Shown here: positions 10,049 to 50,049 of the stretch, piece after piece
How the letters are laid out: every line of letters begins with the position of its first letter
Numbering within the stretch: the stretch's first letter is position 1
Assembly (NCBI GenBank): GCA_015680685.1
Contig: MNCI01003377.1
Location: 764,708 to 828,707 of the forward strand
Direction: 5' to 3'
DNA: 64,000 nt
Origin: Gnetum montanum
Taxonomy: Eukaryota > Plantae > Gnetophyta
Made by a program: the position numbers and the translations under genes
The notes under the pieces: model-generated
Seen by the model: the letters and a program-made list of their open reading frames with translations, nothing else
Database searches by the model: none
Told to the model about the DNA's origin: nothing

Positions 10049-10055
10049 GCTTAAT

Positions 10056-12690: not shown

Positions 12691-12714
12691 CTAATGATTA
12701 ATCAAAACAATTCT

Positions 12715-12930: not shown

Positions 12931-12949
12931 CATTGAATTGAATCCATTC

Positions 12950-19100: not shown

Positions 19101-19348
19101 ATGAATCAAAATATTAAGATTCTTTTCAATTGTGAAAGGTTATCTCAATAATTGTCAATTGAAGAGCTCTAGATTCAAAGAATGATGAGAAACTTACCAA
19201 GAAACTTAATAACTATCCAATAGCCTTCAATTATTTGAAGAAAACATGTGGGATATGAATCTTAAATTTATATAATTTTTTTAACTGTTAGCGGTTATTA
19301 TATATATTTCAAACTAGAAGCTTAAAAAAGAGAGGATCTAGGGGCCTT
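16122..19348 (+). repeat. 3' LTR of element B (last ~760 bp missing)
   Basis: Collinear with 5986-9284; similarity stops abruptly after ggatctaggggcctt. Preceded by purine-rich gggaaaa. Confidence 0.88.
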
Positions 19349-23055: not shown

Positions 23056-23128
23056 TACACTAAGCTTCATTAATACTTTATTAATGTCTTTTCATCAATC
23101 AACTATATTACCTCTCAACCTTACCTAC

Positions 23129-24465: not shown

Positions 24466-26188
24466 TGTACTGACCTAAATCGTCAGTGTAAGGCTAGAAA
24501 GGAAACAAACACCGAGAGATTGTCAGGCAGCCACAGTTGAACCTACCTTTGCCCAAGGGCAAGCTGGAAAAGTAAACGAAGGTAGAGTGCCTTGGATGGT
24601 TCACACGCAAATCAACCAAGGACTTCCCCAAGCGTAAGTTATGGCTAGCGTTGGGGTTATCGTAAATAGGATGTAAACGGAATGTAAACAATGATACGAA
24701 ATGTAAATAAAGCATACAGAATTATGAATAAAGAATAAACAAAGTTATATTTGTAAAACATAAATAGAACTAAATACTGTAAATGGGAGGCAATAATGAA
24801 ACTGTATTATTATTTTTTAAAAAAAAAATGTGCACCGGTCAAAGCGTAGTTCCACAAGTGTGAATGGCAAGTCAAACACCTAGCCCTGGAAAGATATGAC
24901 ACGATGATGCGACGATGCAATGGGATGAACGTGAGAAGAACTTGGAAGCCAATAATCAAATGTGCCGAGCACCCAAGGATTGCAAGTTCTGTCCTCCTTC
25001 AGAATTTCCAATCTCTCCAATCTTTTCCTCTTCCTCTCCCTTCTCTCTTGCTGCTTTTGCTTTGCTTCTCTTGCCTCCTTTAGTTTGTGTGAATTGATAG
25101 GGTATTTATAGGGTTTGGCTAGGGTTTTCTTTGACCAGGTTCAATGTATTTTACAATTTGTGGGTCATTCAAGCCCATAAAAAAATACAAGCCCTCAAGC
25201 AAATAAAAAAAAATTTAAAAAAATTTAAAAAAATTAGCTCCAACTCTGGCCCACTTGGNCAATGGGATGAACGTGAGAAGAACTTGGAAGCCAATAATTA
25301 GATGTGCCGAGCACCCAAGGATTGCAAGTTCTGTCCTCCTTCAGAATTTCCAATCTCTCCAATCTTTTCCTCTTCCTCTCCCTTCTCTCTTGCTGCTTTT
25401 GCTTTGCTTCTCTTGCCTCCTTTAGTTTGTGTGAATTGATAGGGTATTTATAGGGTTGGGCTAGGGTTTGGCTAGGGTTTTCTTTGACCAGGTTCAATGT
25501 ATTTTACAATTTGTGGGTCATTCAAGCCCATAAAAAAATACAAGCCCTCAAGCAAATAAAAAAAATTTAAAAAAATTTTAAAAAATTAGCTCCAACTCTG
25601 GCCCACTTGGAAAAATTATATTTCTTTTTTTCTTTTTTTTTTTGCTAAATATTTGGCTTAATTTTGCATGGGCTTTCATATCCCTTTACCATTTTATAGA
25701 TTTCTTGAAAAAGAAAATCAAGAAGGATTAACACTACCTCGCTTGTCTAGCATCCAGCGTGACTTGCAAAGTGACCTTCAAAACTTGCAATTTTGAGCTA
25801 AAATCTAGAATTTCTAAAGGCTGGGACCCATAGTTGTCAATAGTGGACCTTGAGGACGACTTACACCCTTGAAATCAAGTCATTTTGGCTCAGTTTTGGG
25901 GCTCTAAAAGTTGGTGACGCTGATCCTTACGCTGTGCAACGTCTGAAAAAGTAACCAAAGTGTACTTAGCCAAAACCAAACATTTTGAACCTGAAACTTT
26001 TAATTCTGGATGCTGGAAGTTGGTGCATTCGCTTGTGGGCCCAGGGGGACCTTGCCTATTGAATCATGGACCATTGGGGGTTGTTTCGGAGGCCTCCAAG
26101 TTTGGTCACGCTGTACTCATGTTGGGCAGCAGCATGACTTAGCTTGATTCTTATCTAAAAGTGTGAGGCCAAAATTAGTGGTGTTTCA
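24466..26188 (-). repeat. 3' LTR of A4 (inflated by a ~340-bp probable assembly duplication)
   Basis: Minus strand reads TGAAACAC...GTACA, with a CCTATAAATA box, and the PPT is adjacent at 26190-26202. Confidence 0.88.
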
Positions 26189-26189
26189 T

Positions 26190-26202
26190 TGGCCCCTCTT
26201 TG
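26190..26202 (-). promoter_or_regulatory. Polypurine tract of A4
   Basis: tggcccctctttg reads caaagaggggcca on the minus strand, directly before the LTR. Confidence 0.85.
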
Positions 26203-27384
26203 TTGACGTCTGGAGGAATCCACCCAAGAGGTGTTGACAAAGAAGAGCAAAACACCATGAGCAATAAAGCATCAAACATTAACCGTCGACCCTTGGCTGG
26301 GTGTCATCGCACCATTTTCAAAAGTACATGGGGTTGAGGGAATGTGGTTCAAGATGTAAGGGAATCAGTTGTAACCAGGGAAGCCAGGAGGTTAAGGGTT
26401 ATGATTGCTATCGGGATTGTGGGAGAGGAATGCTCTCTTGTGCACAATTCATGTCATTAGTCCTTTTCAATAGCCAGGATTTCAGTAGACTCGGAACCAA
26501 GACATAGGAGGTGCGTTCTTTGGAGAAACGGGACTCTTACAGAGTAATTGCGGGATCCATTGTAAACATCCAAAGCCACGCTATGATGTGTAACATGGTC
26601 TCTTTGAGACATGAGTGTAACCTCTCTTTTTTTCAAGACAATTGCCTTCTCGCCTGGGGCTTGTATGAGAATGGGCAATAGTCTTTTGTTTGTGATGTCA
26701 ACGGGGTCTTAAAGACCTTTTCCGTGCATTTTTCTCTTTGACCCTTTTTTTGTTCTTTTTTCTTTTCTTTTTCCTTTTTTTTTCTTTTTTTTGTTTTCTT
26801 TTTGTCTTTCTTTTTTTGGTTTTTTGAAAGAGCTTGTTTTTTTGTGCCGTGCTCATATTTGAGCAATTGCATTTTGCATCATGTACTATGTATTGTGTTT
26901 TGCATCATAACTTCTTAGAGAGCTACAGTGTGCAACAGTGTACCAAGAGTTTTGAGATGAGTGGAATGTATCAAGGGGGATGTAATCGAATAGGCTAAGG
27001 GGAGCATGATGGGGAAATAGGGGATGCATCGGGAGTCGAGAATGTACTTATGAACAAATTGATTAACCCAGTCACGTGCATCAGGAAAAACGTGATACCT
27101 TGTTGTCATGATGAAGTGCATCTATGTATGAACGCCTCAAGAGTGTCATCCTGCAAACACAACTCCAAGAAGACAAGAAAACCACAAATGAAACAATCAG
27201 CTAAACACTTTAAACAAGGAGATGGAGTCACCACGTGTAACTTTCAAAGCAAACAGAATCACGAACAACATCAGTTTCATTAGGCCCCATGGGATGAATC
27301 ATGCAACAAGTCTTTGTAGAACAAAAACAGCCAACTGCAACAACAGATCTTTTTCAATTTTTCCTGGTCATCAATGATGTCCCT

Positions 27385-27811
27385 AGTTTATAGTCTTAGC
27401 GGACTGTTGTGTATTAGTTTCACGTCATAACCCCTTGGACGGTGCCAGTTTAGTGTCGTAGCGGATGGTGCATTGCTAGTTTATAGTCATGGCGGACTAA
27501 AAAGAGGCAAACTAGTTTATAGTCTTAGCGGACTTTGGATGCTAGTTTCATGTCATGGTAGACGGATGTAGTAGTTTAGTGTCATACCAGACAGAACTCT
27601 TTGGTATCAGTTTCAAGTCATGATCCAGGACTATTCTGTGGTATCAGTTTTAAGTCATGATCCAGGACTATTCTGTGGTATCAGTTTTAAGTCATGATCC
27701 AGGACTGTTCTGTGGTATCAATTTTAAGTCATGATCCAGGACCGTTCTGTGGTATTCAGTTTTAAGTCATGATCCAGAACTATCTGTGCCAGTTTATAGT
27801 CATAGCGGACT
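27385..27811. repeat. Array of 13 AGTTT-N3-GTC-loop-GAC units at 29-38 bp spacing, including five near-identical 37-bp units (27603-27787)
   Basis: AGTTT anchors at 27385, 27416, 27447, 27478, 27514, 27544, 27573, 27609, 27646, 27683, 27720 (aattt), ~27758 and 27791. Confidence 0.9.
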
Positions 27812-28407
27812 AATGCTTACCTTGCTTGTGTAAAGTGTGATGCTGCATGCATGGTCATGCTACGTGCCTGTGAGATCCTACAAAAAAATCAACTAGGAAG
27901 AAAACAACATCAAGCGACACCTACCGTACATAGAGTTAGAATGTATGAATGAAAGAAAAGCAATGCAAAAAATGATAGTTTTAGGCCGTTCCAGGCCATA
28001 TGCTAGTTTAAGGCCTTTTCAGGCCATGTATTTTTATAGTTTTATGTTTTTTTTATTGTTTTTCAAATGCAATGTGTGAACTATGTTGAAAAATGTGTAA
28101 ACAAAGAAAAACACATGATCTAAGTGAGCGAGCAAAATGTAAACGCATAGGCTAGTGCAATGTAAACAAAAGTCAAAAATGCATGTCAGAGGAGTAGGTA
28201 GAAGGTAGGCAAGCATCAAGCACATTTTCAGCCAAGGGAGAGTNTAGCTTGTCGATGACGGAGTATAGGACTACGTTCGTTGCTGCACCATNNNNNNNNN
28301 NNNNNNNNNNNNNNNNNNNNNNNNNNNNNNNNNNNNNNNNNNNNNNNNNNNNNNNNNNNNNNNNNNNNNNNNNNNNNNNNNNNNNNNNNNNNNNNNNNNN
28401 NNNNNNN

Positions 28408-29450
28408 CTAGCTTGTCGATGACGGAGTATAGGACTACATTCGTTGTTGCACCATCGTCAACATGCACTCTGCGGATGATGCACTGCCCAACACGAATGA
28501 TAATGGATAGTGGAGCTGAAGTGACTTCCCCTCGTTTGGGGTTGACTTTAACTACATCATCACAAAAGGCTAAGGTTGTTGAACCTAATCCTTGTTGTGT
28601 CTGTTGCGAAATCGTTGCACTAATGGATTCTTCATTTGTGGGGATGTCCTCTGTAACAGGAATGGATGCTAACGTTTGAGCAAAGGCTTCGCGGTGAGTG
28701 GTTGAAGTCATGACCAGATCGTACAAACTCATTGTTGTGTTCTTCTATTTAGTGCTTGTTTTACTTGGGTTAGTGCAGCTATGAAGTCCTTGTCATTAGC
28801 TATTGTGTTGGTTTTAACTTCTTCCATGAAGCTTGAGAGATAAACCTCTCGGGAGGGGGACTTAGTCTTGGTTTGCTTGGGGGTAGGGGCCCCAGTGTTC
28901 AGTTGTTGTTTGCTAGTTGTGGCCTTTGCTTCAGTCATGGGAGTTGTGAGGTGCTTACATTCCCATTTGGTGGGCCTAGTCGGGTTGCTAGTGGGGTCAA
29001 CCCTTGGAGGAGGAGGGATTGAGATGTTGTCCACTATTGGGCTTTGGGTAGGTGAGGGGTCATCTCGTTGTGGTACTCTTATGATGAAAGGTTGCTTAGT
29101 GGTTTTTGTTGCTGCATCATGCCAATTTAACGTCTTAGCAGACGAATCATGCTAGTTTAACGTCTTAGCAGACGATGTCTGTGGAGCCTTGACCACAAAG
29201 GGTGTTGTGGGTGCCTGGGGTGGTACCTTGATAACAAAGGGAGGCCTCTTATTTGTGGAGGCTAGGGGAATCCTTACCTTACTGGGAGGCACATGGATCA
29301 CAAAAGGTTTTTGCACAGGTTTGGGCTTTCCACCTATGCTAATTGAGTTTATGACATAGGAGGCATCGTCTATGTTGGATTGACTTGCCGTGTCAATCAC
29401 TAGTTGGCCTTCTTCTATCATTCTCTGCAGGTCGTCTTGCAAGGCAAAGA
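28408..29450 (-). pseudogene. gag: C-terminal gag and aspartic protease of A4
   Basis: ORFs 29152-29502, 28729-29034 and 28271-28732; protease motif IIRRVHVDDGATTNVV; runs into the N gap at 28292-28407. Confidence 0.85.
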
Positions 29451-32099
29451 TTCTAATCACTATAGGCATTGATTTGCTAGGAAGCATGAACAAATCAAGC
29501 AAACATGCATCGAAGATCCTTTGCTAGATCTCCCTAGGTGCTTTGCTTGCCTACCACTCCTATGATGAGTCTATATCACCCTACTTGAGGATGATTTTCT
29601 ACTCCAAATAGCTTGAGGTGATCACAACAATAGTAGACTTATGTAGAAAACCTACAACCCAAAGCAAGTGATACATTAGCTTTCAACATAGGTAGGCCAT
29701 ACAAAAATAACAATAAAATAAAATTAAATTTATAATCACATAATTAAAACCAACCAACTAATTAAAACCAAAATAACCAAAAAGCAAAGTAACTAGAAAA
29801 TGTTGACCTCATCTAAACGATAAATCACTTACTAGGCTTGGGAAACACTAGGGTCTTAGAAACCAAGGTGCATGTATGCGTAACTCAAGAAGACCCCACC
29901 AAGAATGAGCAATTCTAGTAGTTAAACACCTATGGTAAACTTGAGAAAATTGTGAGGTATACATGCTAAAGTTATTCCTTAGTTTCTCCAACACCCAAAA
30001 TCTCATAACTTGGCCTTATGTAAATACTTCCAAGGCTATGTGTGTCATAGATAGACATTGATCACTTTTGATCAATCCTCCATTTTGTACTCTATACCTA
30101 CACCATGTGAACACAAAAATATTTAGAGCTAATGGCCTGACAAAAATAAGAAGAAAATGAAAACTTAGGATAGAGCTTACACTTGCAAAAGATAGTAGGT
30201 TCTAAGAGGATTTTGAAATAAACTATTGATCCAATGGCCTATCATTAGGGTTTTGTTAGCATTATACTAAGCATACTCAAGTATTTCCTAGATCTAGAAA
30301 ATCTTTCATACCCCTAGTGTAAATAAATCATCATCCTTCTCACCATCTACTTAAGTGTTGGGATCATCTACCATGAACTTTGTAATACAATTAGCAAATC
30401 CTGGTAGAAGTATGTCTACAAGAATGGTTGTAGTATTTTTGGTCAAGTTTGACCACATGATCACACTAAAGTTTTGAAGAAAGTATGTTAAGAACTCTTT
30501 TGTCCCAAGCCTAAACCATACACGACCATGGTCAAGAATCATGTTGGGACTTAAGTTGTTGTATGTGGATACACCCATGTAACACAAGATCCCAACCAGT
30601 TCAATGATGATCAAGATGGACTTCAAAAATTCCATGCATGATAAATAATATAGTCATTAAAAACATGATAACCATAGGCAAAATTTGATAACATTAAAGC
30701 TAAAACAAGTATAATGCCAACATTACTACACAAATTTGCATGAATATACACAAAATAATCAAACTCTTTAATTTTAACCATGACAAAAATCAAAATTGAC
30801 CTTGTTAACATTTTCATGAATAGTTAACATGAATATTCAAATAGTAAAACCTTTAGGCAAACAATTAACACAAAGCCAAGTATTGACCAAACTAGCAATC
30901 CAAATTTTAAATGAAATAAAAAAAACACATGATAATAAAAATACTCTTGGCTTGTATGCTAGGGATTAGAGGGATGTGGGAAGAATGATGACAAAAGATA
31001 CAACCTTTCTAGAGAAATCAAGCCTATACAATGCCATTTAAAACAGAATTCTACATCCCAAAACATTTCACAAGCTACCCAAAAACCTTGAACAATGTTA
31101 TAGGATTGCCAGAGTAGTTATAAAAAGCTTTTATAGTCATCTAAACAAACGTTTTAGTGCCCAGTGCCGTTAATACAACTGAAGAAGCCAAAACTCAAAG
31201 CCTAAGAACTACAACTAATGAAGGTAATTCCCATGGCTAGAAAAATTTGCAAAAAAATTCTAATAATTTATTTCTAGCTAAAAACACTAGGAGAAATTCT
31301 ATAAAAAAAAACTCAAATTACCTTTCAACACTATACCAGTAAGCTCAAAAAAATTAAATTATGAAAATGAATTACTTGGATTTTTTTTTCAAAAAAAAAA
31401 CTAATTTACAATGAAACAACTATAGCAAAACCTTTGGGAAAAATATAGAAAAAATTCAAAAAATTCCAAATTTTATGCAAAGCCCCTCTAAACTACCCTA
31501 AAAACCCCTAGGAGGTTGAGACATTATTAAAAAATGGCTCTAGAAAGATCAATTATATCAATTTTTAGGAGAAAAAACCATAGAAAAGACAAAAAACATT
31601 ATGCAGTGGGTCGTGGAAAAATTCATAGAAAATTAATGAAAACTCTAAAAATAGTGATTCCACCTCCATTCAATCATTAAAACTTGCAAAATAGCCTCAT
31701 GACTCCAAAATTGTAGAATCTACATCATAAATTTATTAAAAATTGACAAAGTTCAACTATTTTTTGGCAAAATTAGGGCAAAAAATGCATAAAATAGGCT
31801 TGAAAAATTTTAAATTTTCTTAGGAATAAGATCTAAAGCCAAAATATCATTTTAGATGTGACTGTATAGCTAGAATCCAACATTCAATGCAAGAAAAAAC
31901 CAAAAAATTCCATAGAGCATGCCTAAGCATTACAATTTAAAGAAAATTTGTAAAATAGGGTAAAAGATGAGTACCTGGCTATCCTGGCTAAACATCTCTC
32001 ACTTGTAGAAGGATTGAAAAGTTGGGAGATGATCTTCATAGCCTCGTCTAGATCCTCCAATGTGTGTTTTTTGCTTAATGATCCTTTTCCCTTCGACAT
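29451..32099 (-). pseudogene. Antisense multi-exon cargo gene of A3 (exons ~32099-31975, 30633-30181, 30097-29833, ~29700-29451 truncated) with an FCP1/NIF-like domain
   Basis: Exons match the A2 copy in size and peptide. Exon 2 reads ILIIIELVGILCY...VWFRLGTKEFLTYFLQNFSVIMWSN...YNANKTLMIGH...QNP. GTAAG donors at 30180 and 29832. Confidence 0.75.
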
Positions 32100-32719
32100 G
32101 TTGCAAAATGATAGCAAAATCCTCACTCCTATTGCAACTACGCTATCTTTGAAGTGGATGAGTGTGGAATATGCTTTGAAATTACTAGGTATTGAAACCT
32201 TGATTAGCTCAGCCTTATTTCCAAGCACTACCTCTATAAAAACCAGGCTCAAGTAGATTACATGTGCAACGTGTTAATGAACAAATCTCTCCTATACTTA
32301 TGCACTAATACTAGAGCCCTATGCACTTAGACATCTACTTCACCTATAGTGAACTCAGTGTCCACAAAAGGAAATACCCTATACACTAGGTTTGCATGAG
32401 GATTTTTCTTAGAAAGCCTCTTGACCTTGTGTGGGCCTCACAAGGCACTATCAAAATAAAATATAGAAAAATCACATACAGTGGGTTTTAAAAATTCAAC
32501 CTACCAATGTACTAGAAATTCATGCCTAGCAATACATGCAATCAATGAACCAGGCTATAGAGCTTCAACCATTACATAGAATAACACTAGCAGTTCCTCT
32601 TTGTCTTAAACTAATCAACAAAGCTTTATACCACCATAAAACTCGAGGTTCTTCTATAGAAAAGCTTCTAGGTGCCAAGAAACAAGCCAAAATGGCTAGG
32701 ATAAAGTTGTTTAAGGGTT

Positions 32720-34700
32720 CATGGACCCCATATGTTGACCAACATATTAGGGTGGGATGTAAGGTCCAAAATACCCATGTGAAACCTTAAAAAAACCCTA
32801 AATTAACAACCTAAACTTTAAACCCTAGTTGGAGACATCATCCTTGAAGCTTCAAAAAGACAACCCAAAACAGGCTTGAAACTAGTTAATTCTTAGCTTC
32901 TATGTTGGGCATATATAGCTTATACACTATTTAGCATATAGAGAATAGATGGAGGGCTTTTTACCAATCCCCCAGCTTAAAATGACCTAAAAATTAACTA
33001 GTGGAAGCCCAAAGGCCCAAAACACAAGATTAGCCTAAACTTTAACTAGTTTTTAGCCCTTGGAAGGGAAATTTGAGTCTCCTACATTAAAGGCATGGAG
33101 CCTATACATTGGCCAACATATAAGAAGTGTATGAGCTATCAATAATTCTTATTTACCTCCCCACAATGCCCACAAAGCCATATCTCAACATAAAAATGTA
33201 GACCCTAACTTGGAAACCTTGAGAAACAAAAAGGATGATCAAAAAGGCCTCATTAACTAAAATCTTGACCTTCTATGCTAAGGATGTACCTATCATATGC
33301 TATCCAACATATGGGCCAATGTTAGGCCAAGAACAATCCTTATCCCAATCTAAAATGGCCTCACAAGACATCAAAAAAGTCACCAAGTCCTAATTGTAGA
33401 CACTAGTGACTTCAAAGACCAAGAAACTAAGTTGAATAACCCTCAAAATCTGTTCATATTTAGTCCATACACTAGGCACCTAGAATTTATACACTAGCCA
33501 GTGTATACAAAAATTGGTAGGAATTTTTGACATGCTTTCGATGCCCAAATTACTCAAAATTTGAATGATGAAGCCTTTAGGCCTTGGACTAGGACATAAA
33601 TCAAAATTTGACCTCTTTGGAGTCCCTGAAAGTTAAATTTGGGACTCATATGCTAGTAGCCTAGGCTCCATATGCTGGCTAGCATATGTACAACATATGA
33701 TCTCAAGAAAAATTAATACTTAGCTATTTGTGGTATCAAAAGGACTACTTTTGACCTAGAAACCTTAGCATTGACACTGGTAGCCTTAGAACTTGAAAAA
33801 CCTAGACGAATGAGCCCAAAACTTACCAACACTTATGCTACATGCTAGGCACACATGCCTCATACATTGGCTAGAGTATCATATTGTGTGTGGAATATTT
33901 TGACAAGTTTTGAGCACTCAAATTTTCCTAAAAGTTAACCAATGAAGCCTAGGAGCCCTAAACTAGAAGCCAAATATAATTTGACCCTATTTGAGCCTAG
34001 AAAAAGTGATTTTTAATCCTTATATGTTGAGGCTTTAGGCTCCATACACTAGCCAGCATATAGGCCAGCATATGACCTCAAAAATAGGCCTTAGTTGACT
34101 CATTTTGACTTCAAAACAACTATTTCTAACACTAATACCTATGTTCTACCCTAGAAGTCCTATGTAGCAAAAATACCTACTTTAAAAACTCCATGAATCA
34201 AGTTTTGGATACCTATATGCTAGGACCCAAGCTCCATACACTCACTAGCATATGGACTAGTGTATGAAGATATTTAAGGCATTTTACTAGCTCGAATTGA
34301 CACCAGAATAGGCTTACCTTTCCTTGAGCCACTGTGCTAACATCCAAAGCCTATGAAAGCTAAAAAACAAGTTAATAAGAGCCCCCTTAAACTAAATTTT
34401 ATACTCTATACACTAGTAACCTAGGTTTCATACGTTGGCTAATGTATAGGCCAACATATGAGCCATAAAAGAACTTTATCCTAGCTCAAAACAACCTAAA
34501 AATGATCATACAAAGTACCTAAGTGATTCTATAGAGTCTAGAAGCTATCACATGAGGCTAGAAATGCTTGAAACTAAGTCGAGATCACCTAGAAACTACA
34601 TAGCTCAATCTCATAGATTAGGACACTAGTCCCATATGCTAGCTAGCATATGCGTCTAGTCTGTGAAGGTTTGTATAGGCAAAACTTAGGCCAAGCTTGT
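32720..34700. repeat. Degenerate ~190-bp tandem repeat (~11 units), each with a decayed palindrome CATA(C/T)GCTGGCCAGC(G/A)TATG
   Basis: Palindrome variants at ~32729, 32920, 33103, 33295, 33488, 33669, 33860, 34043, 34235, 34428 and 34633. Confidence 0.75.
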
Positions 34701-34964
34701 TAATTCTTAGCCCTAAAGGCTCCCACAAGCCCTATAATGACCCTGCCATGTCAAATAGACCACAACCATGGCTCACTAAGGCCTAAAACTAGTTGCATAA
34801 GATCTTAATTAACTAAGTTCCATCCTCCTTTATCTTGTTTAACTTTTTTTTACTATACTTTGGCCTTATTTGACCTTATTTTACTTTATCTTTATAATAT
34901 TTTACATTTTTTTAACAATTTTATCACACAAGTACCACTTAATGTACTTTTGGTTGATGTGCAA

Positions 34965-37900
34965 GACTAGGAATATGGATACATGGGTGCAATTTAGTTT
35001 ACCTCTATGCCTGAATGGACCATATGGTGATGTTCAGTAATCCATGGATCTTAGTTACCTATATCTTAAGCCTGATAGCCTATTCAAACATATAGCCTCT
35101 ATAGAAAAGCCTCTTGAATGGCTTTAGCACATAGTTAAAACCATTGATCTCAAGGCTAGTGACATTACTAAGAACTCTCTAACTGATGTTCTAGTCACAA
35201 TGCACAATGATGAGGAGAAAACATTGAAATTAAGTAACTCACTTGAATCATAGCAAGCTCGAAACATCACCAAGGTTCTTCAAAAAAACATTAAAGCCTT
35301 TTCTTACTCATATGAGGATATTCAAGGTCTTGAACCACATTTAGTTTAACATAACACTATACTCAACCCTAGTATCAAACTAGCAAGCAAAAAGTACACA
35401 AAATTAGACCAAACCTAGCCTTGGTAGTTCACGATGAGATCACAAAACTCTACCAATCTAGTTTCATCCAAGTTGACTACACTGATTGGGTATCTAACAT
35501 AGTGATGGTTCCCAAGAAAAATGGGAGCATATGTATTTACATCAATTTTAAGACCTAAATTAGGGAACTATCAAGGATGATTTCTCATTGCCTAGTATTG
35601 ACTAACTCATCAATACTATGGCTAGACATGCCTTATTATCCTTTATGGATGCATTTTGAAGATACAAACAAGTTAGAATCAATCTAGAACATCAATGTTA
35701 TAAGACCTTCATGATCCCTTCGGGAACATTTTTTATACCATGATGTTGTTCAATCTAAAAATGCAAGTGCCCTATCAATGAGGAATTACCTATATTTTCA
35801 ATGATTACATGCTAAGGCTACTTAATAATTATGTTGATGACATAGCAGTTAAGTCTAAAATAGCCAATGACCATGCACATGACCTTAACTTAGTACTTCA
35901 ACGATGTCTAAACTATAAACTTAGACTTAATCCTAAGAAGTTTGTCTTTGATATTAAAATTGGTAAGATGTTGGGTTTTATATTACATAAAGCAAGAATA
36001 CATGTCAATCTTAATAAGGTCAAATCCATAACCAACTTGGTAATACCTACTAATCTTAAGGAACTCAAGGGATTACAAGGTAGAATGCAATTTATCTATA
36101 GGTTCATCTCAAGACTTATGGATAAGCTACAACCCATGCAACACTTGCTTAAGAAGAGAGTTCACTATGAGTGAACTACCCAATGCTAAGAAGCCTTTGA
36201 CAATATCAAGTAAGAGTTTATCCAACTATCCACTATGTACCTGACACAAAACAATAAACAATTTTACATCTACCTCACAATCTCTGACATGTCCATAGCT
36301 TCTCTACTCTATCAAAAAGAAGATGATGGAGAAGAGCTACCTATATACTACTTGAGTAATGAATTGATAGCCTATGAGACTTTATACATGAAGGTCAAGA
36401 ATTATTGTCTAGCCCTAGTCTTCTCCTTGAAGAAGTGGAGACACTACCTTTTTAAGAGCCAAGTCAACATCATATGCAAGGACAACGTGTTAAGAGCCAT
36501 AATAATAAATGTTTATGAAAGTAGCCAAATAGGTCAATGAAAAGCCATGTTAGCCATGTTTGACTTGCATTATATTTTCCAAGTCTCAACCAAAGGTTAA
36601 GCTATGACTACATAACCCACAATTTTCCTAGTTGAAGACAATGCAGCCATCAAACCTGAGTTCCCTAATGAGCATTTTAACATTGTTAACAAGGTACCTA
36701 AGGGTTAAAAGGGTATCATGTACTTCAATAGAGCATCAACTATCCATGGGGCTAGTGTTTTTGCCATCTCAACATCACCTTCCAGTGTAATTCAATCTTT
36801 CTCTTACTATTTTCAATTTCCATGTACCAGCAAGATAGTGGAATATGAAGGGATAATCAAGGAAATGATGGGATCTCATAGCCAAGGGATCAAACACTTG
36901 ATGATAAAAGGTGATTCACAACTAGCAATGAACAAAGTAATTGAGTTTTATGCATGCAAAGCTAAATATTTACAACTGTATTGTGAGAAACTAATGCAAC
37001 AATTTACAAATGTTGGCATTCAACAAATATTGTAAACTAAAAATACCTAAGTTGATGTCATTTAAAGCTTTGTCCTAAGTATGACATTAGATATCTTAAG
37101 TGAATTATCTTTTTTAATATAAAACTATGTTATTTTCATCACACAAAACACTGAAGGTACTTCCATAGCAACTATTAATAATGTTCCTCAAAATGAATGG
37201 TATGATGATATTAATTTTTACCTAATTCACAATGAATCTCCATAGAAATCAATTACTTCTCAAAAGGGCATTGTATGTAAAAGATCAAAATGATATGTCA
37301 TTGTAGCTTATAACAAATTATGTCAAAGTTTCTATGATTTCATATTATTAGTGTGCTTGGGAAAAACTGCAACTCTAATAATCCTGAGCAAGTTCACAAA
37401 GATATATCTGGGGAACATATAGAACTTAGAGCCATGACTCAAAAGGTTAGAGCATTAGGGTATTACTAGTTCTATATTAAAAGTGACTACCTACAAAAGG
37501 TTAAGACTTATGATACCTTTTAACAATCCAAAGATTTAATGCACATGCCACCAACCAAGTTGCACACTACTCAGATAACCTAGCCATTCCAATGATGGGG
37601 AATTAACATCATTAGAACTATAATACCTAAGTCTTCTTCAAGGCATAGCTTTATCATCACCACAACCGAATATTTTACAAAGTGGATTTGAAGCTATTCC
37701 TCTAAGGAAAATAATGTCTCAACAATTCTATAAATTTATATTAGATAACATAGTGTCTCAATTTGGCATAGCCATAACTATGGTCACAGATAATGAACCA
37801 TAGTTTAGTGGCCAAGAAAAGCAAGCATTCTTGTTAACAACTAGACATTAAGCATTCATTTTTGTCACCATATTATCCTCAAGCCAATGGACAAGCTGAG

Positions 37901-38440
37901 GCTAGCAACAAGTTCATCATAAACTTTCTTAAAAAATGCTAAATGTTAACATGGATAAGTGGCATGAATGGCTTAAACATGGACTGTGGACCTATAGAAC
38001 AACCTTTCAAATTGTAATTGGTGCCACTCCATATAGCCTGGTCTATGGATTTGAAGTTTACTTGCTTCTTAAATTGCAAGTTTCATCACTAAGAGTAGCT
38101 CTATCTAACTCCATCAATGATGAAAAAAATGAGGAGTTGCGTCTCATTGACCTCGATTCAGTGGATGAGCAATGAATAAAGATGTTGGTTCACATCAAAT
38201 GATATCAAGAGAGGCAGAAACAACATCATCATCAAAATCCAAACAAATGAAAAATAAAGGAACAAGACCTTGTCCTTAAAGTCATTCATGAACATGTAAA
38301 TAAGTCCTCAATCAATTGGGAGGGGCCTTTCTTGGTTCTCAAAGCCTATCATAATAGGGCATTCAGATTGGTAGACATGAATTCAAATTAATTGGTCAAC
38401 ATAATCAATTATTTCTATCTAAAATCATATTATATCTAAT
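34965..38440 (+). pseudogene. pol: pol of A3: RT, RNase H, additional RNase H, integrase
   Basis: WVSNIVMVPKKNG, KDDFSLP, LSFMDAF, YVDDIAVKS (ORF 35809-36174); RH in ORF 36235-36540; aRH in ORF 36718-37035 (MIKGDSQL); integrase [34 protein letters not shown]. Confidence 0.93.
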
Positions 38441-39567
38441 GCTAACCTATTTTTCTATAGCCCTTATTTTTCTTTGTTTGTAGATATTAATGGATGATTA
38501 GCATCAATGATCTTTGAAGCCTATAATTAGTGAGCCTGTGTAGCCTCTCATTCTTTCTTTTTAGTATGATAGATGAACTACAAACTTTGTATGAGTCTGT
38601 AGGACAAAAGACAAGTTTCTCTTATTAAATGGTGGCCTATAGTTTGTTGGTCATCTCATGTGGCCTTGTGCAATGTATTACAACATGTACTCATTGACTT
38701 GTTTTCTTATCCTCTTAGATTCATGCTTGTAGTTTAAAACCTAAAGTCATCATGAAGGTGCAACTCATCATAGTTTCAAGTTACCATGTGATCTTGATGC
38801 ATGAGACTTGATGAGCTTGTCTTGTCATCCTAAGAGTGCTTATCTTGCATCACTCCCATTACCCATCTTGAGCCATAACCCTGTAGCCAAATTACAACCT
38901 TTCTTTACCCTAAACAACAATAAAAACCTATGTTTGATATTCATGCACTATGGCCACATGACATCTTCTTTGTCATGCCTCATCACCAAGTTCGTTGAAT
39001 GTAATACATCTCATTCAATGATAAAATAAAACAAAATTCGACCTTGACAATGAAACCCAATGAAGGTTTCACCCCAAAAAAACAAAAAAAAAATAGACAA
39101 AAAAGGAGAAGCAAATTGCCAGAGATGCTAAAAGGCCAATAAAGCCTAAAACTCAAATTAATGGATCCAAACAAATAAAGGGAGGAGCCTAAAGATCAAG
39201 AAAATCCAAAGTGAATTTCTAGTTCCTCTAAGGCATCATCGAGTAACTAATAGTTTAAGCACAAAGCATGAATATCTCTTCCATTAGCAAGTGTGTCACT
39301 ACCACATCATACCCATAATTTCAACATTTGAAATTTTTGTTAACCCATGTGACCATATCCTAATAACCAATATAGCCTTCATCTCATCTCAAAATTTATA
39401 ACATTCTATTGTAATCTTATTTCACCATCATAAGCACTCTTTGGCATGGTTCAGTAGCTACAAAATCAACCATAGAGAGAAAGCATTAGTGATGAAACTT
39501 TGGTAGTGTTTTTTATTCTCTGTTGATATCTCCTAAGTCAATCCTCAAAACAACAAAGAGGGACCAA

Positions 39568-40728: not shown

Positions 40729-42183
40729 ACCATAGCTACAAAAGATGATCCACTGATGTCTAGTTACTTCAAGCTAGATCAATTTTATCATTATCATCAA
40801 CTTTCTATCCATGATACTAATTTTTTCTTGGTCTTGAAAGATAATCTTCAAAAGATGATAGATATTGGGAAACTGGTCCTACATGTATTTAATCCTATTA
40901 GGTCCTAGAACTAGTCCATGCAAGTGTATAAGAACCCCTTAAATGCTAGCAATGACCAATATACTATAGTCACATCCAATGATCATAACAAGCCTAAACT
41001 TGCCAAGGAGTCATTTCTAGTTTAGGTACCTCCTCTTAACAATCAAACTTCAACTTCTACAAGTCCAAGAGTTCTTCTTATTATAAGGATACCACCACCT
41101 ACACCTCTCAAAGAACCATTCATCATTAGAGCTTCTCCTCCCTCTTCTAATAAACTTATAGCCAATGTTGACTAATGTCCTCCTATAGTATTCAATGAAT
41201 TCATATCTTCCCTACCAAAAAACAAAAGGTCTCTAGTAATTCAACAAAAACTGTCAACTCTTAAGCCTAAGGCTAAAAATATTAGGCAACCAAAAGTTTA
41301 GAAGGAAGTAGATCCACTGAAGCCTACTCCAATTTCTGCTATACCAATGAATCCTACTGCTCACTCTACATCAACTAGCCAACTTAAGAAAAATAATCAC
41401 AAATAAGTGAAAGGCAAAGAGCCAAAGCAAAAAATTTTAAAACATGAAGTTAAAATACTAGGCAAGATGAAAGAGGTTAAAGCTAGTAAAATAGAAAAAT
41501 CATCTACCAATAATAAGGACTTCTTCACTATCATGAAACAAGTTAAGTTGTTGAAAGAAAAGAATAGCTCTTTGAGCTTGTATGACTTAGTCATGACCTT
41601 CTCTACTTACTATGCAACCTTAGTCAAAATGTTGATCTCAATTACTGTAAGTGAGGATATCCTTATCAATGAAAAGTCTATCCACTCAATGATAGTATAA
41701 CCTCCACTTAAGGAAGAAATGAAGTTAACTACTTTGATATTTCATGATAGTGAAGTGAAGACTAACCCGCATAGTTATGAAGTGTTGTGAGACTTCCTTT
41801 TCATAACCATTAGGGTTTTCCAATACAAGGTGCACTAGGTACATGTTGATGATAGAATGACTACAAACATAATCCCCTACCCATTTTTGAACATTTAGGC
41901 TTGGTTGAGAACATTCAAGATACCTCCACTTCTATACTTTAATTCCTTAATGAATCATATGTAGCCATGAAAGGGTTAATCTCATTAAACTTTGTAGCTA
42001 AGGAATAATTCCCTACATCTATTGATTTTCTAGTTATTTAAGAGACATCAGGCTTTAACTTAATCTTAGGAAGACCATGATTAACCAAGTTACATGTAGT
42101 TTCCTCCCTAATCCATCAAGAGATTCACCTACCTTAAGAAGAAGGTGAAATCATTATTCATAGAGATAGCAGAGCCTCCTTGT
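40729..42183 (+). pseudogene. gag: 3' part of A2 gag plus protease (continues at 50919-51219)
   Basis: DDPL...YHYHQ..H...LKDNLQKMID; ORF 41407-41700; protease VHVDDRMTTN (~41840) and FNLILGRP.L (~42060). The frame RASL|SVNNVDIEQE is restored across the family C insertion. Confidence 0.85.
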
Positions 42184-43053
42184 TGATGAGCGATAAGGTA
42201 CCCCTATGCTTAACCATACGAATCACAAGTGTTCACACATGATCTAGTAAAATTCCATGGATGGGACTAGTTGTGGCATCCAGATTACTATGCTTTGACC
42301 ATAGTTCACTATCTTCCCACTTGGACTAGTGGTAGGTTTTTCATGTATGGTTTAGTCCAAAGTGAGGCACATGATGTTATCTAATTTTTATGCTACTCCT
42401 AATGATGATAAAGAGATAAATTAATTAATCTAATGGGCAATGAAAAATAAGATCTAAACTAGCCTATGGCAATGAGTATTTGTACTTAATCATTCGTACA
42501 TGTCTCACCTTCGTGAGACTACTTTTGGGATTGCCAAGTGTATGTCACTAATTATGACAAATGATACACTTCTAAATTACCAAGTATCTACACCTAAAAC
42601 ATTTGATATTAAGATGTACACATTCTACTTAATAACAGGAATAGTAAATAACAATAAATGGAAACAATTAACTCAAGAAAGTAGTAAATAATTAAAGCAA
42701 TAATAATCTAAGTGGATGCTGCAATGATGAAAGTAATCTCAATCTTTATTGCCAGTCATGTAACATGTCCAAGTACATCACACTTGAATAAAGGTTTTGT
42801 ACAATTACAAACATCACACTGTAGGCATGCACTAGAAATAATAGACTTTAAAGAGAAGAAACTATAAACTATCTACTTGACTCTCTACTTCCTTATCTCA
42901 TCTAAGTACCCCCAACATCATATTTATAGGTAGCATCCACATGAGGTAACGTCAAGTACATGACATCACTTATTGTCTCCGATGTTAGGTACACAACATC
43001 AAGGCTTTGACATCATGTATCCAATGTCAAGGCCACTGTATGATGATTCATCA
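42184..43053 (-). repeat. 3' LTR (870 bp) of the family C element
   Basis: Direct repeat of 50050-50918. Confidence 0.95.
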
Positions 43054-43259
43054 TATCCCCACAAATGAATGAAAACTCATCCTCAAGTTAAATAAAATGA
43101 GGAACAAGTTCTTTACAAAATGTTGGGAGGTATGGGATTATTAACTAACTCAAAAAATGAACAAAATAATTGACTATTTGTAGGCCACAATGGTGTAGTA
43201 CAAAATTGGGACACATTATTACAAAAAATAAAAAACAAAATAAGATTTGGAAGCTCATG

Positions 43260-45985
43260 TGGTGCTCAAAGGTGCTGCCTCTTCCATCAGTTACTTCCCT
43301 TTGTCGCTAGGCTACTGAAATTTGTAATGATTGAGCAAGGCCTACAATTTTTCTTCTTTTGTCTATGGGTCATGCATCATCTAGGCTACTATGTCAATGT
43401 GTGCTAATGCTGGTACATCCAAAGGACATGGCAGTTGTGGAAACATTTGATTTTCCTTTACACACCATGCTGCAAACTGCTATCATTCTTACTTGAAAGC
43501 CCTAGCTTTGTCCCTTAGCTCATGATAATCTATCAATCTATGAGCTAGGTTCGAGGCTACATATTTTTGTCCTTAACAATTGGCTTTAACCATCCCTAAC
43601 TCTGATTTTTCCACCTGTAACTTTTGCAAAGCATTTTTTCAATTTGCAAACTCTTTTTCATACAGTGCATAGGTGGTTGCCACTTGTTTCTCCAACTCAC
43701 TTTAGGGATGACCTACTGTTAACATGGCAAGGTTGGCATATCTAAGGTTAGTCAATGCCATGTATTCCTTTAAATCCTCTATTTTCAGGTCTTTATTTTT
43801 GACTTCTGCTTGCTAGGCCATGGCATAGCTGTCCAAGATGCCCTGCCACTCAAACTTCTACATTGACAAGGAGTTGATGTGGGCCTTAGCCATCTTGATT
43901 TCCTTGTACATGCCAACTTGGTCACAGAAGTGTTCTTTCAATTTTTCATGCTTTTTGGCTTTATTTTTCCATGTGCTAATCTCAATTGTTAACTTTTGGC
44001 AAATAGCATGTACCTCCTCCATAGAGAGGTTTCTATTCTCCCAAGCCAATGTATTCATATTTTGGTTGATCCACACTAGTTGTTTTCGCAACTAGTGGAC
44101 ACTTTCTTCTAAGATGTTTTTCTTTTTTTCCATAGTGGTTAACTAGGAATTCTCTATAGTGAGCTACTTATTTTTCTCTTAGATGGTAGTCAATGCCTTT
44201 TTATACACATGAGATTATGCATCTGCAATAGGGGCATTCCAAACCACCATCTCCTTCTCTTGCTCCATAGTTGCTTTCTCCTTTGCTAACTTAGTGAGCT
44301 CCTTTGTCCTGAATTACTTCAATTGCTCTAATGCAACAAAACATGCAAGATCTCATCATTCTACTTATAGGGTAGTCAGCTCTTCTTGTAATCTTCATAT
44401 CTCATCTTTTGCATGTTTTTCCTTGACCTCTACCATGATTGACTTTCCTTTGATGGTGATGAGATCTTATTGTGCTATAGTGACATCATTGGGAATGTTA
44501 AATAGAGTAGTCATCACTTGATCCATTTGTAGCAAGTGATCAAGCATGTCCTCATGCACTACAGGAGTCATTGAGATCTCGACCAGCATTTGTTCATCTT
44601 TAGTTCCTACTAGATCTATCAAGGGTACAACAGGCTCATTGAATGACTCTTTTGATATGATGAGTGATTACCTCTACTACACCTACTGCATCCTCATGTT
44701 GTAGAACCATAATTATGGCACCTTCTCCAATTTCCAATGTGACTTCAAAGGATGCAGTGTTCCCAAAAATTTGGTGTAACCATTGGGATCCTTCTCCTCC
44801 TACTCCTCCTAATTGTATTGAGATCGTCCCTCTCATTGGATTAGCTGATACAGTGGGTCGTACAACATTGTCCATGAATCAAAAGAGATTGGCCTTGTCC
44901 CTACTTTCCCAGTTGACTATTTCAATGATCCTCTGTAAGTGGCTCATTGAAGGCCTATAATCTTGCAGTGGTGGAAAAGCTTGTGCTTGTGGATGCTGTT
45001 CAAACTCTTTTTGTGTCTCTATTTGGGGTGTAGCCTCCTTCTCTACTTCTTTCTCTTCACTAGAATCTTTTCTCAATGCTGCCATTTTAAAGAGTTCTAC
45101 AAAGGAGGCATGTTGGGCCTTCCTAAGGATATCATTGGTATATTCCAATATTTTCACACACTTGCATAGCTTTCTAATTAAGCAAGGAAATAGAAGTGTT
45201 GGTCTCCTTGACTTCATTTCCATGAACTGCCATTGGATTTCTATGAAGTAATACTAGGGAAGGTTGGCTACACATTTCTCCATCAGAATGGCACTTCCCC
45301 TAGCCACATAAGTGGAGATTTGATTAATCCCTTTCATGGAAAATAGGTCATATGTCCCAATATTAAAGTAGGCTTTCTCACCTATAGTCATTTCATTGTA
45401 TAATTTTTCTTTTTTGTCATACATCCACCTCAGCCATAGTTCTTTTGTTTCGAGGTTGGATCTAGTCAACAGTGAGCAACCTTAGCCACTTCATTGGATA
45501 GGTTGAGAGCTGTAGTAATGTCTTTGACTGAATAAGAGATGATCACCTCATAAATGTTAATAGTAATACCCTCATCTTTATTATGCCATAATTGATGGAC
45601 TTTGACCAAGTACCATTCACCATTTTCAGACAAGATAGGCCATAATCAAGATGCTTTGACTTGTGTCTACACCACTTCTAAAGTAAACTCCATGAATGGA
45701 CTAAAGTTCATTTTCATAATGACTAAAGCTAGTGTTAATTTTTTCAAGGTGATAGTAAGGAAATTAGGGGGAAATGTGAGATGTTGTTCCTATTCGAGGG
45801 TCGATACATCTATCACCTCATCTTGGGCTAATTATGCAATAGCATGGGCCTCTTGATGAATACCGAAGGACTGAGCCTCCTACTCAACATGTTCCTCATG
45901 TTCTCCTTGCTTACTACAGCCACCATGTGGATGCTTAGCGACTCTCTAGGAAGGTCTACCCTTAGCACCTCTTTTTAGGGTCATC
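43260..45985 (-). pseudogene. Athila-type env-like ORF2 remnant (Transposase_32-like domain followed by a long coiled coil)
   Basis: PTLLFPCLIRKLCK (ORF 44879-45223) is the L.FP.LI..LC motif of Athila ORF2; E/K/L/Q-rich heptad region at ~43500-44400 (ORF 43858-44091). Confidence 0.7.
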
Positions 45986-47599
45986 TATAGTCAAGAAAAA
46001 CCAATTCTAGCCAAAGTTATGTTTGTTATTATTAATCAACTTATACCTTACTCATAACCTTAGTTCATTAAGCTCATAATGCATACAATTGCAAGGTTAA
46101 GAAAATTTCAAGAAAAATCCCTCAAAAAGTGTCTATCTCTTTTTACAACCCTCGCCACTACTTTCCTTTTTCATTATATGTGGCTTACAATAATGGTTAT
46201 GGGCTCGTGGATTAGAAAATTTGGACTTTTGGCATTATTGTTAGTGATTTTTCATTATAATTCCTAACATTTTCAACATTCTTACCCTTATAATACCTTT
46301 TGGGTGATAGCAAACTTCAGCAAATAAGTGCAAGTTTTGCATACACGCACCCCCATGACAAAGTTGAACACTCTGGGTTTAGATATATTCAAATAGCTTG
46401 AAAATTGGAGCATTAAAGAGCTAGATATTGCACATGGAATATAGAGGCATAGAGCTCTAAGTCACGATAAAACTTTTCAACAACTTCCCTAGTAGCAAAT
46501 GAGAAAAATGAAGTTCAAGGTTACATTATTGATATGGTTACAAAAATGGCATTAAAGGGGTTGAATGCGACGTATACTTGTGAAAAAAAACACACATGTG
46601 AAAACCACCGAAGTGAGATAATAGCTCTATGTTACACAAAACCATAAGTTATGAGCATCCAGATAACAAGATCAAATGAACCATAAAAGGGATTGTAGAA
46701 ATTGGAACATGAGGTGTCATACATGGTCACAATGAAACCACGTACCCAAGATTTAAACCAAGTCCAAACCACATTGCAGTGACATCACATTTTTTCATCC
46801 CATCAGTGGACAACTATAAGACTATCAAAGTCGTGAGGAGTAACATCACTTGGCATTTTGTCCAAGGAATGAGTGGTATTATGGCAAAATTATTGGTTTT
46901 TTATATGGAAGTTCTGAGAAGTTGCCAACCTTTAAGCATCGATACATGTCTTTTTAGTGGAACCCACAAAAGTTTATTCAACATCATTATAAGTTTCCCT
47001 TACTCCCATTTTTCATTAGATCTACAAGGATATGGTTACAACCTCAGCAACATGATAGAACATACAGAAGTAGCCAAAGAGAATCCACAATCCCCTTGAT
47101 GTCACACCCTTTACATTCTACCTTAGTTCTGCACTCTTCTGTCTAGACACAATGATTATAGATTTATTATTACATTGAATGATGGAAAATATTACCATTA
47201 TGACCAAAGCAAGAACCTCTTATTAATGAAATGGATGGGTGGATGGTGTGGTTGTAATGTCCGAATAATTAGTCCCTTCTAATTCGACAACATAGAGAAA
47301 ACCTCATCCTAATGGGCAACATGATCAATAGTGAGATTACATAACAAGGAAAGTTAAAACCACAACTAGAAAAAAGTAGAAGAAAAAGGAAAAATTGGAT
47401 CAAGAAATAGGAAAATGATAAAAAATTATAAAACAAAAAGATGAAAAACACCTTAAAATCATAAAGGTTAGAATGGGGGGTAACCCCCACATCTAAACAT
47501 TTGGTCATGACTAGGATTAATAAGTGGATGAATAGGATCCATACATGTATGAAACATTGGGAACCTTTCATACCCCAGCCACTAGGTGTCATCTATTGG

Positions 47600-49923
47600 T
47601 GGTGTGGTGGCTGGATAGAAAAATTATTGGTTACACACTTGATTGTTATATGTATGGTGGGTTAGGATATGAGGCATGTTAACATTATGGATGACTAGCC
47701 TAGGAGTGCACCCTTGATCATGAGATGGTATGCATGGATTCATTTGGCTTCTCACATTTTTAGATTCATTAGTTGGATGTGGAATTGGAGTACAGATAGA
47801 TGGTGGCCCTTGTGTATGGTTACAGGACATTAGTTGAGATGAGAAAGGTGGTGCACCAGATTGACATTGTGTTGGCTCAGATGATGTGTTGGGTCCATGT
47901 GTGGTTTTCCTTAACTTACGACCTTTCCTTTAGAAGGAACATTTCTAGCATTATGGTTGGGACCCACTTGTGTTAGCATGTCTTTGCACATTTGCAAAAC
48001 AAGTGACACTTATTCTTTGATATTATGGTGCTAAACCTTCTTGAGTTACTGGCAATGGCATTGGAGGAGGTGAATTATGAAAATATTGAGGGTAAGTTGG
48101 ATGGTAAGAGGTACTAGATGGTGATCCTTTAGGGGATTTCATGTATTGATGGTACTTGGGAGAGTGGTAGTGGTGATTTGAAGTGGAGGATGCTAAACTA
48201 GTTGGAGAAATAGGGTGTTGAACATAATATCCATGCATTTTTGATAGATATAGCTGATTTGGTGATGGCTTCCCCCACAGCTATGGTTGATGACCATATT
48301 AAGGCTAGTGATAAGTCCCCCTATGGTAGTACAATCGGTTTTGGAACTATCCATAATTACCTCATGGGAGAGGAAGTCTCCCAAGCATGTGCTTTTGCCT
48401 AAATTTTAGATTTAAGACACTTGCCCAATACTCCTATAGATGCAACTATATGGGACATTGGCCCTTTGAATAATCATATACGTAGATGTTGCATCCATTA
48501 TCTTCATTTGTGGTTGAGTCTATAGCCTTACTTTCATCAGCCCCTTTTTTTCCTACCGAAAAGTATTCCTGATTGTTTCTTAGTTCTATGTCCTCTATTT
48601 ATTATGTTCTCTTGGCATGTGTTGCATGATCTTCTCTATGATCTTCTCAATAAGATTTGTAACATTTTAATTTATCCATTTGGACATCCTATTAAACTTT
48701 GCTTCTAGATCATCAATAGACTTCTTTATTGGCAAAGTTTGTTGTGAAATCACCCTATCGAGAGTAGTCTCATTCTCGTTACCATAAATTTGGACCTCCT
48801 TCAATTGAAGAATTAGGTCCCATTAATATTTCTCAACATTCTTCCATTTGCATATCTCTCCTTCTTCTTTTGCCACACATACTATTAGCTCTTTGATTTG
48901 ATGGGCTTGAAGCTCATATAATTGCCCTGGGGCATACATCCCAAGGGTTGCCCTTGTTTTATTACAAAGTCCATCTATGATGTGGAAAATTTACCTTTCC
49001 TTGGAGAAACCATGGCATGGGCATCTATTTAATAAAGCATAATATCTATCTAAGGCCATGTCCAAGGGTTCATGTTATTCTTTTTTCCACTCTTGGATTT
49101 TTCTCCTTAGATTAGACACTCTTGCATAAGTTTGGTATTTCTCATTGAATAGTTCCATCATTATAGACCATCGATAGATTGAATTTGGTTTCAACAATCT
49201 ATACCATAATTTGGCTCTATCAATTAGTATCCTAGGAAAGAGCTTAAGCTCTTTCCATCCACTTTCAATGTTGTAAAAATCACAGGCATCATGGAAGGCT
49301 TGTAAATGATGTTGTGGATCTAAATCATAGCCTAAAGCATATTTAGGAATATTATTCATGTCAAGCTTGGGTAAATGGCTCTTTTTGGGATGCCTACAAG
49401 ATATCTTAATAGCCTTTGTAATATGCATTAGGCTCTTAGTGGACAACAAGGATTCACTGTTATCAAACAAACTGTGAGGAAAATTCCTATGTTCATGGTG
49501 ACTTCTTTGACTTTTCCCATGGGTTCAATTCCAGTTTTTAGTTTGACCCTTTAGTGGAGCTCCATCTCTATACCTAAGTTCATCTTTGCTAGAACTAGAC
49601 ATTGAAGGGGAAGAGGAAGATGAGGAACTAGAGGAATTTTCATGGCTTCTATGGTGTTCTTCAAGGTCCTTTGATTTATCATTTCTTGGTTTTGAGGAGG
49701 TCTTAGGCCTTGAGGCCTTCCCTAGTCCAGGACCTACATCATCTTCTCCAAGATTGTCTACCTTAGATGAATGTAGTCTTTGAGCATTGTCAAGGTGGTC
49801 ATGATTATAACAAACCCCTACATAAGGTTGATCACTCCAATCTTCTTCATCATATATCTCGTTATTTCTCCAATGAATGTGTTTACTATACAGTGCATAG
49901 TCACTTCCATGTGAGAGAGACAT
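47600..49923 (-). pseudogene. gag: gag of the family C element with Ser-rich N-terminus and Pro/His-rich C-terminus
   Basis: DPQHHLQAFHDAC...LKLFPRILIDRAKLWYRLLKPNSIYRW..MMELFNEKY (ORF 49075-49470) is a Retrotrans_gag pattern. Confidence 0.88.
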
Positions 49924-50030
49924 TGCTCTTGACTTATGGTATGTATGAGCTAAGAGTTTCTGAAAGATATATTGTTAATACCTTGTATAGAGATCATGTA
50001 TAATATAACTAATTTAGATAACTAGCACCA

Positions 50031-50048
50031 TCCCCAACAAGAGTGCCA
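50031..50048 (-). promoter_or_regulatory. PBS, probably a decayed tRNA-Asp type
   Basis: Minus strand tggcactcttgttgggga vs TGGCGCCGTTGCCGGGGA, differences mostly C>T/G>A; 1 nt from the LTR. Confidence 0.6.
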
Positions 50049-50049
50049 A

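Follow-up and report, generated by a model that had tools for sequence, protein, structure and literature searches.

Two copies of an antisense gene in a nest of retrotransposons

The analysed window, 64,000 nucleotides of a Gnetum montanum contig (MNCI01003377.1, positions 764,708 to 828,707), is a nest of decayed plant LTR retrotransposons with GC content of 26-42%. CpG dinucleotides reach 0.04-0.22 of expectation in the window, except for a younger block at 24-30 kb. Two of the decayed elements carry, on the minus strand, copies of one intron-bearing gene, designated A3 and A2.

Exon 1 of A3 (32099-31975, 125 nt) begins with ATG and ends at a GT donor in phase 2. It is followed by intron 1 (30634..31974, 1341 nt, 45% T on the minus strand), whose acceptor is decayed, and by exon 2 (30633-30181, 453 nt), which contains five stops and a NIF/FCP1-type HAD domain. 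Intron 2 (30098..30180, 83 nt) and intron 3 (29652..29832, 181 nt), both bounded by GT..AG, enclose exon 3 (30097-29833, 265 nt). Exon 4 is present as a 5' fragment (29452..29651); the gene is cut within it at 29451, and the sequence across this junction is the gag C-terminus of a younger, same-strand element. The corresponding exons of A2, also on the minus strand, are exon 1 (56587-56463, 125 nt), exon 2 (55136-54681, 456 nt, four stops, HAD-IIID/UBLCP1-like domain), exon 3 (54601-54336, 266 nt) and exon 4 (53155..54202, 1048 nt, without family match). A2 extends past the part common to A3 and comprises at least seven exons from 56587 to 51691, with lengths summing to 2923 nt. Its predicted exons 5 (52912..53051), 6 (52693..52790) and 7 (51691..52480, coiled-coil-like) are present in this copy only, with borders chosen partly by phase, and a short eighth exon may start near 51600. 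The frame given by summed exon lengths is the one with fewest stops in all seven exons of A2 and in three of four exons of A3. All nine introns are T-rich on the minus strand (44-62% T versus 22-33% in exons).

The initial annotation had presented this exon-intron structure as a conserved trait, and its observation was confirmed on both copies: exon sizes (A3/A2) of 125/125, 453/456 and 265/266 nt, intron 2 lengths of 83 nt in A3 and 79 nt in A2, phase 2 of the first intron in both copies, and aligned peptides, located at 32060 and near 56540, were all found. The HAD domain, the exons after those it listed and the location between protease and RT go beyond that annotation. The exon 2 sizes rest on borders placed by homology, because the flanking splice sites are decayed, and those of exon 3 are not frame-equivalent, A2 continuing in frame into exon 4 and A3 being one base off. 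GT/AG is conserved at nine of the 12 splice sites of introns 1-3; the three decayed sites are the intron-1 acceptors of A3 and A2 and the intron-2 donor of A2. That peptides align while introns do not was true in part: exons are far more alike, but introns are not wholly unalignable and keep weak similarity. Alignment z-scores against shuffles are 11.5, 19.0, 8.9 and 10.6 for exons 1-4 versus 5.3, 3.8 and 2.1 for introns 1-3, and intron 1 requires 503 gap columns versus 0-25 for the exons. Raw percent identity was dropped as a discriminator of exons and introns, as gaps introduced by the aligner inflate the shuffled controls. Amino-acid identities between A3 and A2 are 17/41, 58/150, 29/85 and 28/66 aligned codons for exons 1 to 4.

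The A3 gene lies 2.86 kb upstream of the equivalent pol (34945..39310, plus strand), which is decayed and comprises RT, RH, additional RNase H (aRH, RVT_3) and INT. The spacer between the antisense ATG and pol (32100..34944) is predicted to contain an antisense promoter, with a T-rich plus-strand tract at 34800-34950. The 5' half of the A3 element, including its protease side, is lost and replaced by a minus-strand fragment of the younger element (24480..29451, left border approximate). This fragment is CpG-richer and high-copy, and includes the gag C-terminus, truncated protease and tandem repeats. Summed contig depth in its gag-end bin was 85,137 in run X1 versus 528 in run X7, suggesting a recent lineage-specific burst.

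The A2 element retains the gag C-terminus and most of the protease (40740..42183, plus strand); the protease gave no Pfam hit and was recognised by eye and by similarity to other copies. It is split by a nested minus-strand LTR element (42184..50918) with LTRs 86% alike and a perfect 5-bp target duplication, beyond which the last part of the gag-protease frame, read by eye, extends from 50919 to about 51190 (plus strand). The A2 pol (58028..61765, plus strand) again comprises RT, RH, aRH and INT. With the nested insertion removed, the order is gag, protease, antisense gene, 1.46-kb spacer and RT-RH-aRH-INT. The gag of the A2 element (23100-24480 and 40740) is apparently split by the nest at 24.5-40.7 kb, with about 13 codons missing by eye; this gap is consistent with a deletion in which the 5' half of the A3 element was lost as well.

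Both elements have RT, RH and INT in this order together with the aRH characteristic of the Ty3/gypsy Tat clade (RVT_1 35782-36171, RT_RNaseH 36214-36537, RVT_3 36709-37032, rve 60081-60353), and the two pols are collinear. Location of aRH between RH and INT corresponds to the Ogre/Retand subclade. This order does not fix the subclade, because gnetophyte, Ginkgo and conifer II Tat clusters have it as well (PMC13468544). In both elements the gene lies upstream of RT at an equivalent site and with the same orientation, although their pol DNA has diverged to 68-74% identity; the linkage of gene and pol is demonstrated for these two copies, related contigs being too short to reveal it. Directly before the pol frame, both elements have a T-rich tract and a shared acceptor-like motif, to which a start codon at the fourth codon of the frame is a possible alternative; no donor site of a sense-strand intron was found after the protease. 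None of six candidate flanks could be assigned as an LTR pair to the A3 or A2 element, both being cut by nested insertions. Protein search with RT-RH found no relatives, and locus scans of viral contigs, metagenomes and phages were blank.

Further elements are present in the window. The nested element at 42184-50918 is complete, with gag at 49.1-49.5 kb and, at 43.5-45.8 kb, ORFs of weak Transposase_32-like and coiled-coil character; the open stretches scanned gave no pol hit. It is probably Athila-like, judging from a primer-site motif, and a plus-strand relative starts near 61750-64000. Another Tat-like element (3121-15309, gag at 3.1-5.9 kb) has aRH (12723-12926) before the RT thumb/RH and no detected RT core, and its protease and 3.3-kb spacer are repeated at 16120-19348 (77%); it contains no trace or homologue of the antisense gene. 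A minus-strand Transposase_32-like remnant (21420-22298, E=0.0012) has no relationship to the A2/A3 gene. At 11791-12693, 14455-15309, 24917-25610 and 28244-28450 there are tandem duplications of 340-450 bp whose copies are 88-95% alike. One of them spans a single N and one gap is flanked by duplicated sequence; some may be assembly artefacts.

Selection, decay and related copies

Both window copies are dead; they are pseudogenes with 11 and 9 stops over 339 aligned codons. The initial annotation had read the protein-level conservation between them as purifying selection, and the codon comparison bears this out. Over 326 sense codon pairs, dN is 0.475, dS 1.52 and dN/dS 0.31 (bootstrap 0.17-0.47, with 1 reached in 0 of 2000 resamples), an estimate obtained from two copies with near-saturated dS (pS 0.65). 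A similar dN/dS of 0.33 was obtained for six pol blocks. Shifted frames give 0.93 and 1.35 and frames of the opposite strand 0.78, 0.48 and 1.33, where 0.48 belongs to the frame sharing codon position 2. Coding by this plus-strand shadow frame was rejected, since it contains 15 and 13 stops versus 11 and 9, reaches a BLOSUM sum of 443 versus 671 for the gene frame and encodes no domain.

When only transversions are counted, 21 of 72 four-fold sites differ versus 88 of 597 zero-fold sites (p=0.004), with a ratio of 0.51 for gene and pol alike. The signal likewise persists when CG/CHG-prone sites are left out of the two-copy comparison, a check proposed in the initial annotation: 29/45 four-fold versus 143/393 zero-fold sites differ (p=0.0004). 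Exon 3 alone gives no signal of selection outside such sites (ratio 1.07). Selective conservation of the gene at the protein level is thus supported by the aligned codons.

Stop density is the same in the gene (20/678 codons) and in pol (51/1692; p=1.0), the result to be expected of a gene that was still intact at the insertion of each element. Fourteen of the 20 stops in the gene are TAG, which matches methylation-driven decay; both copies would have decayed after insertion through methylation-driven C-to-T change. At four-fold sites the gene shows more transversions than pol (21/72 versus 31/187, p=0.037, the pol blocks being chosen best hits). This higher divergence of the gene does not fit simple co-descent.

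DNA contigs of three sequencing runs (X1, X6 and X7) were compared with the window at 80% likeness. X6 and X7 come from other organisms and hold 5% and 1% of the words of 29400-36500; as they also match, the family is common to three organisms. The contigs pile up on exons far above introns and spacer, in agreement with the family trait claimed for the gene. Median bin depths of exon and non-exon DNA are 360/85 and 120/30 in A2 (10 exon and 11 non-exon bins, nine mixed bins left out) and 469/59 and 152/14 in A3 (four exon and 16 non-exon bins, three left out, seven pol bins excluded). Exons are accordingly 4-11 times deeper than non-exon DNA, contig depth not being equal to copy number. Up to 49 distinct variant contigs cover a single exon position, versus mostly 1-12 in intron 1. 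Since diverged contigs run across exon-intron borders, other DNA copies retain the introns, and among the joints listed (15 of 390 and 15 of 376) none removes an intron. A contig with a depth of 395 is similar to parts of A3 exons 2-3 (30098-30645), a hint that the gene is present in a young high-copy subfamily whose copies have collapsed.

A relative of exon 7 is transcribed. Run X11 covers, of the A2 gene, mainly part of this exon: most of 52 oligo-dT reads fall on 51994-52285, 45 being less than 90% identical and seven 90-95% identical. Their loose ends agree at 98-100%, so they represent one source transcript, and they extend the exon-7 frame without stop (by eye, in an unstranded library). 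Reads of run X8 on A2 were set aside as mostly poly(A) artefacts. A3 exons have almost no depth in the oligo-dT runs X11 and X12, and no RNA run is listed as containing 29400-36500. No read joins two exons in runs X8, X11 and X12 (2-26% of each read), the window copies being dead.

We propose, with a probability of about 0.7, that A3 represents a disrupted copy of an antisense gene maintained by selection and situated between protease and RT of Tat elements, likely a spliced accessory gene of the element itself. The gene could instead be cargo of a different transposable element (a DNA transposon or a Helitron whose accessory gene contained introns) that landed in the ancestral Tat protease-RT spacer, so that selection would date from that other element. 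DNA-mediated capture usually gives intron-rich genes. The excess of four-fold divergence over pol would also agree with such an origin, as would the fact that most related copies are not tied to pol. Against it stand the identical position and orientation in two diverged elements, the stop density equal to that of pol, close relatives that also span the spacer before RT, and the lack of any transposase family hit within the intervals (136 open stretches scanned). We consider this origin unlikely.

The HAD domain and the remaining exons

Exon 2 belongs to the NIF-type domain family of FCP1/SCP/UBLCP1 HAD phosphatases. It matches Pfam NIF weakly in both copies (A3 E=0.0039, A2 E=0.019), and exon 2 of A2 matches TIGR02245 (HAD-IIID) with E=3.1e-8 and a score of 33 versus a cut-off of 192; values below curated cut-offs are expected of decayed copies. 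Exon 2 of A3 had no NCBIfam hit. Comparison of exon 2 with UBLCP1 (PDB 3shq) gives E=0.0029 over profile positions 37-144, and all 30 ESM Atlas hits with exon 2 carry NIF. Protein searches with exon 2, alone and as a two-copy alignment, found no relatives. AlphaFold2 models have mean pLDDT of 34.7 and 35.8 and are unusable for judging the HAD Rossmann-like fold.

Exons 3 and 4 have no family match, with no Pfam hit at E<=1 for exon 4 or for exon 3 in the right frame. ESM Atlas returned for exon 4 only a 0.88 unnamed cluster, and the one representative hit to its end, an unrelated 1715-aa repeat protein, was discarded. A Transposase_32-like nature of exon 4 is unsupported, as it does not match the Transposase_32-like ORFs of the window. 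Exon 7 shows a weak coiled-coil match (JAKMIP_CC3, E=0.0018). Domains known from Tat extra ORFs (PMD, Transposase_28, Transposase_32, ATHILA ORF-1) are not matched by the gene, and no ubiquitin-like domain was detected in it.

Derivation of exon 2 from a host phosphatase family brings up another origin, in which a single antisense capture of a host gene, introns included, was followed by passive carriage, the selection having been inherited from two host paralogues or from the donor. Capture of gene fragments by transposable elements is common in large plant genomes (PMC13477047), and one transcribed relative exists. Passive carriage is opposed by the bias of the A3-A2 differences themselves to synonymous sites, by the excess of exons over introns that many copies from three organisms show, and by the failure to find a host protein matching the other exons. 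It appears to us decidedly improbable.

In HAD phosphatases of this type, the first aspartate of the DxDx(T/V) motif is the nucleophile (PMC7281111). Neither copy has any Asp in residues 1-20 of exon 2, and both show E-[LM]-V-G-I-L at the expected catalytic slot, placed by eye from the consensus motif. The HMMER matches begin after this slot. The domain is therefore predicted from its residues to be catalytically inactive. That the gene is a real accessory gene with an active HAD domain, or with a role mainly as antisense RNA, the missing aspartates reflecting decay or misalignment, is very improbable. In its favour are the heavy decay of the two copies, the placing of the motif by eye and the antisense RNA role that has been proposed for Tat extra ORFs (PMC7264820). 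Against it, Glu and Val are common to both slots, Asp codons cannot yield Glu or Val by C-to-T or G-to-A change, and protein-level selection opposes an RNA-only role.

A candidate accessory gene of Tat elements

As an accessory gene of the Tat element, the gene would likely encode a predicted inactive FCP1/UBLCP1-type phosphatase fold, an additional domain of no recognised family and a predicted coiled coil, judging from the exons. Starting from the established position, orientation, exon homology, domain family, selection and many related copies, we suggest a promoter, a sense-strand intron and a decoy role, with strength falling in that order. Pol II would transcribe the gene from a promoter of its own, located in the 1.5-2.9 kb spacer before RT, and the transcript would then be spliced. 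Only sense genomic RNA is reverse-transcribed. Because this RNA is the opposite strand, the antisense introns are invisible to the spliceosome in it and are kept; six or more introns would in this way survive every round of retrotransposition. With less confidence, the 6.9-kb protease-RT interval may act as an Ogre-type intron of the sense RNA, whose removal would leave the gag-pol message without the gene, while the unspliced genome would retain it. The most uncertain point is the function of the dead HAD fold, which might serve as a phospho-Ser/Thr binding module or a decoy for the Pol II CTD or proteasome substrates and so promote element expression in trans. Taken jointly, these steps would give an Ogre-type intron grown to about 7 kb and housing a pseudophosphatase-decoy gene of about 1,000 codons and seven or eight antisense exons, whose product binds phosphorylated Pol II CTD or proteasome subunits and lifts host control, with a living member still transcribed; we offer this complete picture tentatively and hold it doubtful.

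Published extra ORFs of Tat elements sit either 5' of gag or 3' of pol and contain PMD, coiled-coil or Transposase_28 domains (PMC4408406, PMC11963269, PMC6317226, PMC7264820). The present gene resembles the antisense ones among them (Retand TRP28 ORFs, maize Grande gene23, RIRE2, and the PMD and PMD-coiled-coil ORFs of lineages III-V) in being an antisense accessory gene of a Tat element conserved across copies; Grande gene23 has a reported promoter of its own, and some Tat extra ORFs contain a coiled coil (PMC7264820, PMC11963269, PMC4408406). Unlike these plain ORFs located 3' of pol or 5' of gag, it is located in the interval from protease to RT, contains six introns or more and encodes a HAD domain, with no match to PMD, Transposase_28 or Transposase_32. 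With Ogre the elements share the RT-RH-aRH-INT order, a non-coding interval that parts gag-protease from pol, and the T-rich tract before pol. The interval of Ogre, however, averages 274 bp (PMC6317226), whereas here it measures about 6.9 kb and holds a whole gene, its sense splicing being putative. Orchid Tat/Gypsy elements with a captured AlkB m6A demethylase ORF provide a parallel, since there too a Tat-family element has fixed a host enzyme fold, which its subfamilies retain (PMC9289625); the orchid ORF keeps its catalytic residues, whereas here the phosphatase fold is predicted to be inactive and is part of a multi-exon antisense gene. UBLCP1/HAD-IIID and FCP1/SCP (NIF) phosphatases match the gene over about 110 residues; it differs from them by absence of DxDx(T/V), absence of a detectable ubiquitin-like domain and joining to unrelated exons.

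In the literature searched, which covers subscription journals only to a small extent, we found neither an antisense gene with introns in the protease-RT interval nor a retrotransposon with a NIF domain. The REXdb table of extra-ORF domains, which shows only domains found in five or more elements, contains neither HAD nor NIF, and extra ORFs, introns, antisense genes and phosphatases are absent from the accessible part of the 2026 Tat survey (PMC13468544). Plant LTR retrotransposons are generally said to lack introns except for Ogre and EVADE (PMC12786077). The antisense position between protease and RT, the seven-exon form of A2 and the HAD domain were not found described.

Extra ORFs are already a known theme of Tat elements, and the gene presented here is a further form of Tat accessory gene. 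The origin of Tat antisense ORFs has been called unknown for lack of homologues (PMC7264820). Because this gene combines a recognisable host-derived domain with many introns, it gives a handle on their origin and function.
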